Of a stretch of DNA of 64,000 nt, positions 8,235-33,655 are shown piece after piece; positions within the stretch are counted from its first letter, which is position 1, and each line of letters starts with the position of its first letter. Below the pieces are notes generated by a model, which worked only from the letters and a program-made list of their open reading frames with translations, was not told where the DNA came from and ran no database searches. The translations under genes were made by a program, and so were the position numbers. Source of the stretch: a virus; the IMG/VR virus record IMGVR_UViG_3300023174_000121, positions 21,947-85,946 of that record; one strand, written 5' to 3'.

Positions 8235-9252
8235 TTTTTTGTTTCTCCATTTCACTTTCACACATTTCGAATACCAAGTCTTTGAACGTGTACTCTGGCT
8301 TCCAGTCTAACACTTTCTTAGCTTTACTGCAATCACCGAAAATTGTTGGCACTTCTGCGGGACGATAGAAGTCTTTATTAACTTCAATAATTTTCGCACC
8401 AGTAGAAACATTGATACCGATTTCGCTAAGACCTTCGCCACGCCATTCAATTTTGAATCCGAGATACTCTGCAACATCTTCGCAAAAATCGCGAACCGAA
8501 TGCTCTTCATCGCTGGAGATAACATAGTCATCTGGTTTATCTTGTTGTAGCATCGCCCACATTGCACGGACATAATCTTTAGCGTGACCCCAATCACGGC
8601 GAGCATTTAGATTACCTAATTGAAGAATTGATTGCAAGCCTAGATGGGTACGAATCATTCCCTGAACGATCTTTCGAGTAACGAACTCTGGTCCACGTCG
8701 CGGACTTTCATGATTGAATAGAATGCCATTACATGCGAAGAGATTAAAACTTTCGCGATAGTTTACAACAATCCAGTAGCCGTAGAGTTTAGCAACAGCA
8801 TATGGCGAGCGTGGATAGAATGGTGTGGCTTCAGTTTGTGGAGTCTCTTTTACTTTGCCATACAATTCACTTGTTGATGCTTGATAAAATTTTACTTGTT
8901 TCTCTTTTGAGAGAGTCTTAACTGCTTCAAGCAATTTTAAAACACCGATTGCGTTTGCGTCACCAGTGTATGTTGGGCAATCATAGCTTACGCTAACGTG
9001 GCTTTGTGCGCCGAGATTATAAACCTCATCTGGCTTCACTTTAAAAACAATAGACTCTAGATTTGCAGAATCAGTCAAATCGCCATAATGAAGTTTAAGT
9101 CTATGTTGAATGAATTCAATGTTGCCGGCATTGATTCCTGTACTTGAACGTCTAACAATTCCATGAACTTCGTATCCTTTATCAAGTAGAAGTTCTGCGA
9201 GATAGCTTCCGTCTTGACCAGTAATACCAGTAATCAATGCAACTTTACTCAT
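8209..9252 (-). CDS. gmd: GDP-mannose 4,6-dehydratase
   Basis: [55 protein letters not shown]. Confidence 0.97.
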
Positions 9253-9320
9253 AATTTTTCACCTCTAAAGAAAAACATTATTCTAACATACAACTATATA
9301 TCTAGCAAATTTTCTCAAAC

Positions 9321-9328
9321 AATAAATA
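9321..9328 (+). promoter_or_regulatory. putative T4-type late promoter (AATAAATA)
   Basis: One mismatch to TATAAATA, just upstream of the GGAG RBS and ATG 9346. Confidence 0.55.
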
Positions 9329-9345
9329 ATAAAAACGGAGAAAAT

Positions 9346-9630
9346 ATGGAATTTACCGACATTACTACTATCGTCGCTGATGTTGGATTTCCAATCTCAG
9401 CAGCAATTGCTGCTGGTTATTTCGTATTACTCTGTCTCAAATTCATTCTAGCTGGAGTCACCTCTTCTATCAAGTCATTAGAAGAGATTACAAAAAGCCT
9501 AGACAAAAGAATTGACATAATGAATTCCGAAGTAGAAAGAATTGACATTAAAATATCTCATGCTTTAGGATTACAGCCCAATTTTGGAAGAATTGCTCGG
9601 GCTAATCATAATGATGTTAGAAAAGATTAA
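9346..9630 (+). CDS. small membrane protein, GFPI/YvrJ-like, with coiled coil
   Basis: DVGFPISAAIAAGYFVLL transmembrane segment followed by heptads; RBS GGAG. Confidence 0.75.
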   Translation: MEFTDITTIVADVGFPISAAIAAGYFVLLCLKFILAGVTSSIKSLEEITKSLDKRIDIMNSEVERIDIKISHALGLQPNFGRIARANHNDVRKD

Positions 9631-9651
9631 AAACACTAGGGTCATTAGTCA

Positions 9652-9825
9652 ATGCCAAATACTAAAAGGCAAACGCATCATAGACAACCACATAAGTCTT
9701 CTTCCCCACAGGAGTCTGACAAAAAAGCACACACTGCTGGGATTGGCATACTTTTAATTTTACTCACCAACTATCAGGCTGAAATTAAACAAATTGTTTC
9801 GGCCCTACTAAAGGGTATAACATGA
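9652..9825 (+). CDS. 57-aa small membrane protein (below ORF-track cutoff)
   Basis: MPNTKRQ...AGIGILLILLTNYQ...KGIT*; its TGA overlaps the ATG at 9822 (ATGA coupling). Confidence 0.6.
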   Translation: MPNTKRQTHHRQPHKSSSPQESDKKAHTAGIGILLILLTNYQAEIKQIVSALLKGIT

Positions 9826-10556
9826 CTGCATTATTAAATAAAGTTTTTGAATATAAGAAACTACCTTTTATTCTTGGTGGTTTAATATTTGCATCTTCTC
9901 TGACACTTCTTTCTGTCTTTAAGACTGCTGAGACACAACTCACACAACTTGATAATGCACGAAAAGTTGCAAAAGAAATGTCTAAGAGTTCAGATGATCT
10001 AACTGCATATGCAAGATATTATGTCACTACTAAAAACGATAAATGGAAAATTGAATTTGAAAAAGTCTTAGCAATTCGTTCTGGTGAAATTCCAAACGAT
10101 GATGGACTAAAAAAATCTTTTAAAGATAAAGTCAAAGAAGTTGGATTTGAACAGAACGAACTCGATATGATTCTAAAGTCAGAACTCTTATCTAATGAAC
10201 TTGCAAAACTTGAAATCAAAGCATTTAAGAATATTGAAGATTATAAAGCAGAGAAAGAACCCGAAAAGAACGCAGAGAAATTAGGCATTCTTGCAGTACA
10301 GGCAGAAATGGCAATGTTTGGAGAAGATTACCAAAAGCATAAATTTCTTGTCATGGACGCTGCAAACGAATTCTATAATATTGTTCATGGTCGATTGAAC
10401 TCTGCATATAACAAATCAATGACGATTGCATGGGCTTTGATTTCTACAATTAATGTGTCTCTCCTAATGTTAATGATCTTCATTCAACATGGAAATAAAA
10501 TTGTAAAGAAACCAGTGCGTAAACCAAGAAAAGTAATTCCAAAAAAGGTAGAGTGA
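9822..10556 (+). CDS. two-TM protein with a chemoreceptor/histidine-kinase-type periplasmic helical sensor domain and no signalling domain
   Basis: TM1, then SSDDLTAYARYYVT...VLAIRSG...GF...SNELAKLE..AF...MFGEDY..K..VM, then TM2 and a short basic tail. Confidence 0.7.
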   Translation: MTALLNKVFEYKKLPFILGGLIFASSLTLLSVFKTAETQLTQLDNARKVAKEMSKSSDDLTAYARYYVTTKNDKWKIEFEKVLAIRSGEIPNDDGLKKSFKDKVKEVGFEQNELDMILKSELLSNELAKLEIKAFKNIEDYKAEKEPEKNAEKLGILAVQAEMAMFGEDYQKHKFLVMDAANEFYNIVHGRLNSAYNKSMTIAWALISTINVSLLMLMIFIQHGNKIVKKPVRKPRKVIPKKVE

Positions 10557-10840
10557 TGTATATTGTAGAGTTGATTAACAAGTATGGGTTTCCAATCATT
10601 GCTGCATTTGGACTAGCATACTTTGTTCACTACACTTGGATTTGGGTAACACTAGAAATAAAACCTGTTATTTCTAGTGCAAATAAATCACTCATCGATT
10701 TGATCGATAGAATAAGAACTCTTGATAATGATTTAATTCGACTCAATGAAAAGATCGACACAGTTCTACAACTTCGCGGCAGAACAATTGACGCAGAAAG
10801 AATAGCAGTAGACAAACAAATCAATAAAAATCAAGCATAG
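10553..10840 (+). CDS. small membrane protein, GFPI/YvrJ-like, with coiled coil (paralog of 9346-9630)
   Basis: KYGFPIIAAFGLAYFV transmembrane segment, LIDRIRTLDNDLIRL. Confidence 0.75.
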   Translation: MMYIVELINKYGFPIIAAFGLAYFVHYTWIWVTLEIKPVISSANKSLIDLIDRIRTLDNDLIRLNEKIDTVLQLRGRTIDAERIAVDKQINKNQA

Positions 10841-11322
10841 AAAATGTGTTTGCCTATTTTGGTAATCACTTTCTTATTCCATCTAGGATTTACATAATTA
10901 GCATGATAATAAAGGGCATTGTCTAGCTTCTTTATTCTATGCCCACCAACAAGAATTCTATACGCAGCTTCTTTAGATGCGATAAATTCTTGTGAATCAT
11001 ATCTCATAAGCCGACTCTTCTTTTCACATACCCAAGAGAATTGACATGTTTTGTTAACTTTTTGATAGACTGTTTTGCAAACAGTATTACCAAACTTACC
11101 AGATTTAACTCTATTAAGAGTCACTTGCGCTACTGCAAGTTTACCCTCAAAAGATTCTGTTGCTGCTTCGTAATATATGTTTTGTGCTAAACAATTGATT
11201 TGTTGTTCTGTACTAGGAGTTATCAACTGATATTTGCTCTCTACAATTCCACTATCTACCGATAATATCAAACCAAAAAATAAAAAAGATCCTAGTAAGA
11301 CTTTTATAGTCTTTAGTATCAT
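10831..11322 (-). CDS. cell wall hydrolase (SleB/Hydrolase_2 family)
   Basis: CLAQNIYYEA, AVAQVTLNRV, CQFSW, ALYYHANYVNPRW, IGKHIFY; N-terminal hydrophobic segment. Confidence 0.92.
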   Translation of the reverse strand: MILKTIKVLLGSFLFFGLILSVDSGIVESKYQLITPSTEQQINCLAQNIYYEAATESFEGKLAVAQVTLNRVKSGKFGNTVCKTVYQKVNKTCQFSWVCEKKSRLMRYDSQEFIASKEAAYRILVGGHRIKKLDNALYYHANYVNPRWNKKVITKIGKHIFYA

Positions 11323-11344: not shown

Positions 11345-11687
11345 AAGTGGTAGGTTATTCTGTTACGAGGAAACCTACCGAAACCCTAAGTGGTTATCAC
11401 GCCACTAATCTGTATTCGCTATCGTTTGCGTTTACTTGATTTGCTTCTACGGCCGAGTTGCCTCAACTCTACGGCTTTCGCATTGCCGTGTTGTCTGCAT
11501 CGATACTCTTTGCTCTGTCGAACCTAATTCGGGCCCATCATAAACATAATGTTTGGAACTTTTATTATGAGCATTATTATCTCATTCACCAGTAGACAAT
11601 ATGTTTATGGTGGACCCGGGGGAGAACTGCCCTCCCCGTCCAAAACTCATTTTTCTTTGCTTCTTTCCTTTCAGAGTTTACAACAAT
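11345..11687 (-). ncRNA. ssrA: two-piece (circularly permuted) tmRNA
   Basis: Acceptor piece ends T-arm-CGGGTCC-A-CCA at 11608. A self-pairing intervening segment follows, then the coding piece starts GGGCCCGA..TTCGAC at 11536. G3-U70 pair present. Tag (A)NDSEYRLVA** at 11429-11394. Outer ends approximate. Confidence 0.92.
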
Positions 11688-11706
11688 ACTTTTATTTAGT
11701 ATATCA

Positions 11707-12063
11707 TTATTTTACAAATGGTGCAAGGTTGGGTGATTTCCATCCCTCTGGCTTTAGCACTTTGCCATCTTCACGCTTTCGAACCTTTCCTGTGTCTTTA
11801 TCTATCTTGTCAAAATTGCTTCTTGCGACTTCACCCCATGCACCATTAACATCATAGCCTTTCATGTAGCAATAGCCAAGAATAACCCAAATCATATCCA
11901 TACATGCATCAAGTTTTTCTACTTCATCATCTTTATTGTTTGCTTGAATGAATTCATTAAACTCTTCAACAATTAGATTTCGATATAGACTTGCATTTGC
12001 TTTAGTCTTTTCTTGATCACACGCATCAATAAAAATTCGAACATCATCATACATTCTATTCAT
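11707..12063 (-). CDS. MazG/PRA-PH-like NTP pyrophosphohydrolase
   Basis: LIVEEFNEF, LDACMD, AWGEVARSNFDK, REDGKVLKPEGW. Confidence 0.85.
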   Translation of the reverse strand: MNRMYDDVRIFIDACDQEKTKANASLYRNLIVEEFNEFIQANNKDDEVEKLDACMDMIWVILGYCYMKGYDVNGAWGEVARSNFDKIDKDTGKVRKREDGKVLKPEGWKSPNLAPFVK

Positions 12064-21944: not shown

Positions 21945-21957
21945 AGCAAACTCCTTT

Positions 21958-23593: not shown

Positions 23594-23601
23594 TATTTAT
23601 A
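23594..23601 (-). promoter_or_regulatory. T4-type late promoter TATAAATA
   Basis: Perfect consensus about 30 nt upstream of the HNH start. Confidence 0.75.
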
Positions 23602-33606: not shown

Positions 33607-33655
33607 GATCTTTTTCCCCTAATAAATAATAGACTATTCTTTAAAAGGAAGAATC

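Follow-up and report, generated by a model that had tools for sequence, protein, structure and literature searches.

We analyzed a stretch of 64,000 nucleotides of viral DNA (positions 21,947 to 85,946 of IMG/VR record IMGVR_UViG_3300023174_000121), referred to below as the window, and focused on four tightly packed genes on its + strand at 9346-10840. The source, a freshwater T4-like phage, is represented by an 85.9 kb viral record that is 52% complete, and freshwater and lake metagenome runs of several studies hold near-identical DNA. Every flanking open reading frame (ORF) of at least 200 amino acids (aa) is on the - strand, on both sides. A preliminary description of this DNA, made from its letters and ORFs, had reported four + strand genes that run against the genome flow behind a late-promoter-like motif. 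Our gene calls and an ATAAATA at 9322-9328 confirmed this layout. The two middle genes, F1 and F0, are the main subject here. They represent a family that is conserved and restricted to viruses; its sensor module, of bacterial origin, no longer has an output but has acquired a micro-protein partner and conserved polar membrane helices. The features of the locus are as follows.

9322-9328, + strand: ATAAATA, late-promoter-like motif, 17 nt before the ATG of gene A
9346-9630, + strand: gene A (GFPI), 94 aa; N-terminal transmembrane (TM) helix and C-terminal coiled-coil-like helix; phrog_18771, E 1.2e-26
9652-9825, + strand: F1 (partner protein), 57 aa; basic, Pro-rich N-terminus, marginally hydrophobic helix, invariant LTNYQAE(V/I)KQ motif
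9822-10556, + strand: F0 (output-less sensor protein), 244 aa; TM helix, helical periplasmic domain, TM helix, basic tail
9858-9926, + strand: F0 TM1, residues 13-35, from hydropathy
9927-10415, + strand: predicted four-helix periplasmic sensor of F0, about residues 36-198
10416-10493, + strand: F0 TM2, residues 199-224, from hydropathy
10494-10553, + strand: Lys/Arg/Pro-rich tail of F0, residues 225-244
10553 (GTG) or 10556 (ATG) to 10840, + strand: gene B (GFPI paralog), 94-95 aa; phrog_18771, E 8.2e-28

Gene A and F1 are separated by 21 nt. F1 and F0 overlap in the ATGA at 9822-9825, and F0 and gene B in the GTGATG at 10553-10558, where the start of gene B overlaps the stop of F0. F1 and F0 form a translationally coupled cassette behind a late motif.

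Hydropathy analysis (Kyte-Doolittle, 19-residue window) located two hydrophobic segments in F0, residues 13-35 and 199-224. The AlphaFold2 (AF2) model of F0 is all-helical, with a predicted local distance difference test score (pLDDT) of 86.5 and a predicted template modeling score (pTM) of 0.68. The helices span residues 14-70, 73-87, 100-107, 111-143, 151-166 and 168-227; TM1 is continuous with the first helix of the bundle, and the fourth bundle helix is continuous with TM2. This is the topology of a sensor module, in which an all-helical extracytoplasmic domain of ~130-170 aa is flanked by two TM helices. Both the hydropathy and the model agree with the earlier reading of F0 as a TM-periplasmic-TM protein with a short Lys-rich tail. 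F0 is predicted to be an inner-membrane protein, with a four-helix (CHASE3-like) sensor between the TM helices and a basic tail in the cytoplasm. As the preliminary description had also stated, no HAMP, kinase or methyl-accepting chemotaxis protein (MCP) domain was found in F0 (Pfam, E ≤ 1), and only 20 residues follow TM2.

A word-indexed search returned 182 F0 homologs at E ≤ 0.001. Among the best 120 of them, almost all have lengths of 239-264 aa, and they contain no Pfam domain. A phmmer search against 1.84 billion representatives gave 1049 matches at E ≤ 0.001. All 10 representatives at E ≤ 1e-30 are at most 290 aa long, while the weaker matches (E from 6e-21 on) are the N-terminal 200-240 residues of proteins of 450-1500 aa. 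The matched regions are N-terminal in 85 of 93 cellular homologs. All 18 long homologs that were scanned have output domains, MCPsignal in 10 and HisKA/HATPase in 8, often together with HAMP, PAS or receiver domains. These data indicate homology between the sensor part of F0 and the sensor modules at the N-termini of chemoreceptors and histidine kinases. The periplasmic motifs had been likened by eye to sensor domains of MCPs, histidine kinases and cyclases; the first two are borne out, and no cyclase-linked protein is among the 18.

A scan of viral contigs found 54 viral loci with F0 (L numbers below denote single loci). In a phage isolate collection, no isolate matched the region (blastn) or F0 (tblastn), and no cultured carrier is known there. 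The alignment of 126 F0 members extends down to 36% identity within the same length class and contains 26 invariant columns. F0 could in principle be a recently truncated pseudogene of a captured chemoreceptor, which its lack of output domains would suggest. The conservation of the family refutes this explanation and leaves it with next to no chance of being correct. At least 182 full-length, stand-alone homologs of the same length class (E ≤ 0.001), the invariant columns, a conserved basic tail and the 54 viral loci are hard to reconcile with recent truncation, and no longer form exists among the 10 closest representatives.

An exhaustive structural search of 48,161 chains with the AF2 model placed sensor or ligand-binding domains of kinases or chemoreceptors at all of the top ten positions, in line with the structural similarity to sensor domains expected earlier. 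The best match is 3va9 (HK9), with a Z score of 13.2, a root-mean-square deviation of 2.4 and 127 aligned residues, and the tenth is McpN, with a Z score of 10.5. MCP2201 and PcaY_PP are among the top matches; Tsr, Tar, NarQ and QseE are further down the list. Helical bundles easily reach such Z values. Therefore, the homology claim rests on sequence, and the fold counts only alongside it. Foldseek found no match to the model in the PDB at E ≤ 0.001, and PDB sequence profile searches, with the phage family alignment and with a broader alignment, gave chance-level matches only. A similar fold is predicted for one uncharacterized protein (194 aa) of an uncultured phage (E 4.4e-5). CHASE3 (PF05227), 4HB_MCP_1, TarH and PilJ matched neither F0 (Pfam, E ≤ 1) nor 16 cellular homologs. 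We therefore do not assign F0 to the Pfam CHASE3/4HB families. Its resemblance to CHASE3 is a lead from the fold and from language-model neighbors, which include CHASE3 clusters (score 0.95, lead only).

The SSDDLT, ARYYVTT, LAIR.G, LSN.L..LE..AF and FG.DY..K segments of F0 are signature positions of a large cellular sensor family. At 92 periplasmic positions a residue is shared by at least 50% of 60 cellular homologs; F0 is identical at 42 of these and the phage consensus at 46, and these identities cover nearly all of the positions conserved at ≥90%. The cellular family is broad, and at least 583 relatives, with 23-35% identity to F0, were confirmed in species-representative genomes from many phyla. 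It is large and its signature is strongly conserved, yet no Pfam or NCBIfam model covers the sensor domain in the 18 homologs scanned, and no solved structure is detectable by sequence. Written out, the cellular signature is ...SSDDLT..R.YV.TGD..W...VL.IRNG..PR.DG...LSN.L...E..AF...MF...Y..K..IM.P...F...R.

The membrane helices of F0 are as conserved as the sensor across the 126 members. Ile22, Phe23, Ser26 and Asn211 are 100% conserved, Trp204, Ile207 and Leu214 99%, and His223 98%. The tail has a median of 25 residues, with 9 Lys or Arg and 1 Asp or Glu, and its net charge is at least +4 in 125 of 126 members. In contrast, the TM regions of 60 cellular homologs have no conserved residues. 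We infer that signaling ends in the membrane, where the F0 helices would contact F1.

F1 is found directly before F0 in 47 of the 47 loci that have sequence upstream of F0 (tblastn). Its length ranges from 51 to 64 aa. In the alignment of 30 distinct F1 sequences, the N-terminus is basic and rich in proline, and the LTNYQAE(V/I)KQ helix is almost invariant. The conserved unit is the two-gene cassette of F1 and F0, not a four-gene operon. The hydropathy maximum of F1 is 1.23, only marginally hydrophobic, and the earlier label of a 57-aa TM peptide is less certain for that reason. We are highly confident of the overall anatomy, that of a phage protein family derived from a chemoreceptor sensor, without output and with an obligate micro-protein partner.

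These features also bear on the proposal that F0 is a decoy or dominant-negative receptor, which would heterodimerize with a host chemoreceptor or kinase that has this sensor type and silence it, or would soak up its ligand. Receptors of this kind use the sensor module, with its two TM helices, to dimerize. A quick maximum-likelihood tree groups the phage rows together (support of 98 in the Shimodaira-Hasegawa-like approximate likelihood ratio test, SH-aLRT), and the nearest cellular clade is a sister group of three MCPs (SH-aLRT 97); the tree holds 9 of the 126 phage and 60 of the 93 cellular rows, and the sister relation is provisional. A decoy is nevertheless very unlikely. The cellular homologs found reach at most ~35% identity, and none of them is a close, host-like copy. 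Within one bacterial class, 401 genomes were sampled and only 12 contain the sensor domain, in every case in an open frame of 308-644 aa. The relatives of the window phage infect streamlined SAR11 and OM43 cells, which are not known to be motile. A mimic would need neither the invariant residues in the membrane helices nor the obligate 57-aa F1.

Genes A and B, which flank the cassette in the window, had been called paralogous GFPI proteins with a single TM helix. Their paralogy is clear: the two proteins are 24% identical over their full length, and both match phrog_18771, a family without known function, whose full-length profile is matched by all 18 aligned GFPI members. Gene B has 1528 homologs at E ≤ 0.001. 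The single-TM claim stands for A, with one strong hydrophobic segment; B is marginal (maximum 1.44). Through their first ~25 residues, 13 of the 18 GFPI members weakly match the holin family phrog_4898 (best E 1.1e-4), which would make the GFPI proteins weakly holin-like and is a lead only.

In the preliminary description, the operon centers on the sensor, and the GFPI coiled coils could supply its output. A survey of loci argues against this. The two GFPI genes adjoin each other in Methylophilales phage Melnitz (genes 97/98), Pelagibacter phage HTVC008M, L006 and L008, and are separated by the cassette only in the window, L005 and L007. GFPI genes are present in the locus only for the four closest relatives, and in L006 and L008 the pair is 1.3-2.3 kb from the cassette. 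None of five large records of distant F0 carriers, two of them at least 98% complete, has a GFPI homolog. Since GFPI genes are missing from these distant carriers and the pair is self-adjacent elsewhere, the GFPI proteins are not the general output of the cassette, and an obligatory output role is ruled out. The invariant presence of F1 and the lineage-limited occurrence of GFPI indicate that F1-F0 is a movable cassette, which landed between the older paralogous genes A and B in the lineage of the window. A second case of F1-F0 between a pair of paralogous genes was seen in L029 (L029:459-2048), where the cassette lies between two divergent IscA-like paralogs, next to an IscU-like gene.

Gene B is 44-45% identical to its homologs in the Melnitz and HTVC008M pairs. 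In these two phages the GFPI pair is just upstream of csgF/csgG. The curli (CsgF/CsgG) cluster of pelagimyophages has been described as containing ‘two hypothetical proteins of the same size’ (PMC7029224), which are evidently the GFPI genes. The Melnitz paper proposes the curli pore as a lysis timer, and the word ‘holin’ is absent from its main text (PMC9004378). A search of the window's own 86-kb record (52% complete) did not find CsgG. In four loci (L009:8366-8542 and relatives), PhoH is followed by a protein of 50-61 aa that has a TM helix at its N-terminus and a coiled-coil tail. It is GFPI-like in architecture, but the GFPI profile misses it.

The T4 late promoter is TATAAATA. In 6 of 7 loci, gene A is preceded by ATAAATA, which in three of these reads TATAAATA. 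The GFPI pair of Melnitz and HTVC008M is homologous to A and B, which are split by F1-F0 in the window, and has the same late-motif position; HTVC008M is the sole exception among the 7 loci, as its gene A directly follows another gene. Of 31 distinct regions upstream of F1, 11 also contain ATAAATA in the 120 nt before the gene, mainly in loci where F1 opens a transcription unit. By eye, CTAAATA was spotted in some F1 upstream regions, which are outside this count. In the window ATAAATA is rarer than by chance (11 observed vs 23.5 +/- 4.7 expected), a deficit that selection against spurious late promoters would produce. The relatives thus add support to the late-promoter reading, and we infer that the sequence at 9322-9328 acts as a late promoter. 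At least two other copies of ATAAATA, those at 23594 (-) and at 33622 (+), are located 25-35 nt ahead of a start codon.

The position of F1-F0 relative to lysis genes provides a possible clue to its function. Gene orders were read manually from an ORF map, in which ORFs from a simple script were clustered across all loci; in some loci F1 was missed as an ORF where tblastn detects it. At least five gene orders place F1-F0 beside endolysin or spanin genes. In the first (five loci), the order is i-spanin, o-spanin, GH19 endolysin, F1, F0, and no other membrane gene next to the endolysin is common to all five loci. The second (four loci) has spanins, F1, F0, a DUF4337 gene, F3 and, 1.9 kb further on, the endolysin. 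In the third (two loci), F1 and F0 are convergent on the endolysin, and in the fourth (one locus) they follow a fused spanin-like gene. The fifth (the window and L005) has a SleB-type hydrolase 275 bp past F0. The GH19 endolysin matches phrog_181 (E 1.6e-77). Both spanins are Rz-like; the i-spanin matches phrog_312/2536 (phrog_312, E 3.1e-5), and the o-spanin, which has a lipobox, phrog_456 (E 5.1e-9). The spanin-like gene of the fourth order, L042:5243-5815 (+), is a 190-aa ORF that matches phrog_4952 (E 6.6e-47) as well as both the i-spanin and o-spanin profiles made from the neighboring loci, and it may be a fused spanin directly before F1-F0. A GH19 endolysin, spanin or SleB-type hydrolase gene is within 1.5 kb of F0 in 12 of the 30 loci that are flanked on each side by 2 kb or more (14 of 55 sources), and a recognized lysis gene is within 3.5 kb in 16 of 55 sources. 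The hydrolase gene of the window is the following.

10831-11322, - strand: SleB/Hydrolase_2-type cell-wall hydrolase; PF07486, E 3.9e-26; phrog_938 endolysin, E 7.4e-22; N-terminal hydrophobic segment

Its 3′ end overlaps the 3′ end of the convergent gene B by 10 nt. Residues 38-162 match endolysin-annotated genes of many phages. The hydrophobic segment (residues 1-28, Kyte-Doolittle) lies outside the part that is common with other phages' endolysins, and the protein is a candidate Sec-exported or signal-anchored endolysin.

Among the options raised earlier, lysis timing is favored by these neighborhoods. We propose tentatively, and at somewhat less than an even chance, that F1-F0 is a sensor-coupled lysis timer or modulator, a proposal that draws on gene context and sequence. 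If the output is in the membrane, as suggested above, the module could act as a holin/antiholin-type timer of lysis. Ligand-dependent movement of the sensor helices would be transmitted to the conserved polar TM helices of F0 (Ser26, Asn211, Ser213 and His223) and to F1. The contacts of F0 and F1 in the membrane would then alter the oligomeric or hole-forming state of the complex, which would set when the membrane is depolarized or permeabilized. The time of depolarization would in turn determine the time of endolysin and spanin action according to a chemical cue in the periplasm or the environment. The GFPI proteins of the window would be local co-players in this process. The more specific idea of a ligand-gated lysis clock, in which a small extracellular or periplasmic molecule, and not protein accumulation alone, would set the moment of lysis through F0 and F1, is doubtful.

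Several observations weigh against a role in lysis. Neither F0 nor F1 has a match to a holin, an antiholin or another lysis family in Pfam, PHROGs or NCBIfam, and F0, with 244 aa, exceeds most holins in size. The real holins could instead be nearby, namely the GFPI pair, a 148-aa two-TM protein, the DUF4337 protein or F3. A DUF4337 membrane protein (PF14235, E 3.5e-32) is downstream of F0 in 26 loci, and F3, a ~200-aa coiled-coil protein with a C-proximal TM helix, in 25 loci (L009-L044 and many others). The 26 loci have only the DUF4337 protein and further uncharacterized membrane proteins downstream of the cassette. A recognized lysis gene is missing within 3.5 kb of F0 in 39 of 55 sources, and a distance of 25 kb separates F0 from the GH19 endolysin in one record that is 98% complete. 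Because lysis genes are scattered in T4-type phages, the distance to the endolysin is only weak evidence against the proposal. Conversely, the carrier loci are related and are not independent events, so the neighborhood counts are weak evidence for it. Transcript data do not help. One metatranscriptome run has exact contigs over 9205-9634 and 11010-11288, with a depth of 3.5-5.5 that is similar to that of DNA runs. The RNA-library cover thus spans gene A and the hydrolase, and one contig begins upstream of the putative promoter. Because of the DNA-like depth and possible DNA carry-over, these contigs are not evidence of transcription or of a start site. Metatranscriptome contigs over 10118-10331 end loosely at either side and were for this reason assigned to a relative. 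In the literature, we found no paper that links CHASE3 or four-helix sensor domains to phage holins or lysis, and none on a module of the F1-F0 kind, although supplementary files might list such genes.

The neighborhoods also allow F1-F0 to be seen as having another late membrane function, such as tuning the host envelope, transport or division, or anchoring a phage complex at the membrane. The complex of sensor and F1, with a basic cytoplasmic tail on each protein, would carry out this function, and the lysis neighbors would reflect a clustering of small membrane genes in variable regions. The DUF4337 protein and the coiled-coil TM protein that follow the cassette in 26 loci fit such a role and may belong to the F1-F0 module. 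Most sources have no nearby lysis gene, and in L029 the cassette is between IscA-like genes. We regard this possibility as rather unlikely: it names no specific mechanism, and it leaves the repeated adjacency to endolysin and spanin genes in different gene orders unexplained.

A role in superinfection exclusion or immunity, also raised in the preliminary description, appears unlikely. F0 and F1 would block DNA entry or periplasmic steps of a second phage, with the sensor as a binding surface; T4 Imm and Sp act in superinfection exclusion this way. A membrane protein pair with a large periplasmic domain, encoded by a movable accessory cassette in variable regions of T4-like genomes, would suit this role. 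In one group of loci F1-F0 adjoins the DNA polymerase gene, and in T4 the imm gene adjoins gene 43. A neighboring lipoprotein weakly matches the Cor exclusion PHROG (E 0.0012, first 21 residues only). However, late-promoter motifs fit poorly with exclusion functions, which are usually needed early. PADLOC gave nothing for F0 or F1, and they match no exclusion family. F0 has kept the signature residues of the cellular family, suggesting that ordinary ligand sensing is retained, and the adjacency to endolysin and spanin genes would be unexplained.

The proposed sensor-coupled timer can be compared with several known systems. T4 holin T and antiholin RI form an inner-membrane lysis timer that is expressed late, from genes that are not necessarily clustered with the endolysin gene. 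The periplasmic domain of T is ~160 aa and takes a signal from outside the cytoplasm, and the F0 domain is comparable in size. There is no sequence relationship, as holin T and RI are absent from the Pfam scan. T has one TM helix and F0 has two, and the periplasmic domain of F0 is of a type that senses small molecules in bacteria; a timer function of F0 and F1 is putative. As candidates for the holin class in general, F0 has two TM helices and a charged tail but is 244 aa long, and F1 is small and marginally hydrophobic. F0 is closest to the 4HB/CHASE3-like sensor modules of MCPs and kinases, with which it shares the arrangement of a TM helix, a ~165-aa helical domain and a second TM helix, sequence homology, the fold and signature residues. 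It differs from these receptors in having no HAMP, MCP or kinase output and in having its own invariant polar TM residues, the basic tail and F1.

GlnX of Corynebacterium is a transmembrane four-helix-bundle transducer that has periplasmic sensing parts but no enzymatic output and signals only by protein contacts, as F0 would (PMC9769921). GlnX differs in being cellular, in its architecture and in its partners GlnH and PknG. Mu releasin gp25 (DUF2730) and pinholin systems act on signal-anchored endolysins; a small protein whose TM helix is N-terminal and whose helical part is cytoplasmic is encoded next to an exported endolysin with a short lysine-bearing N-terminus (PMC9239132). The GFPI proteins and the hydrolase of the window, which starts with MILKTIK, are alike in architecture. 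Unlike Mu releasin, the GFPI proteins have no match to DUF2730 (Pfam, E ≤ 1) and have only the weak N-terminal match to phrog_4898.

F1-F0 might bear on the mechanism of lysis by pelagimyophage-like phages of abundant, streamlined aquatic bacteria. If lysis or another membrane decision were tied to a chemical cue, the cassette would represent a novel route by which viruses sense their environment. Such a module would further offer a compact example from nature of transmembrane signaling without enzymatic output, and a ligand-gated lysis clock, if correct, would span widespread freshwater and marine T4-like phages.

One further element lies beyond the wall hydrolase gene.

11349-11730, - strand: permuted two-piece transfer-messenger RNA (tmRNA); Rfam RF04321, 81.9 bits, and RF01849, 51.2 bits

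ARAGORN listed 17 tRNAs without the tmRNA, which sits directly past the hydrolase gene.

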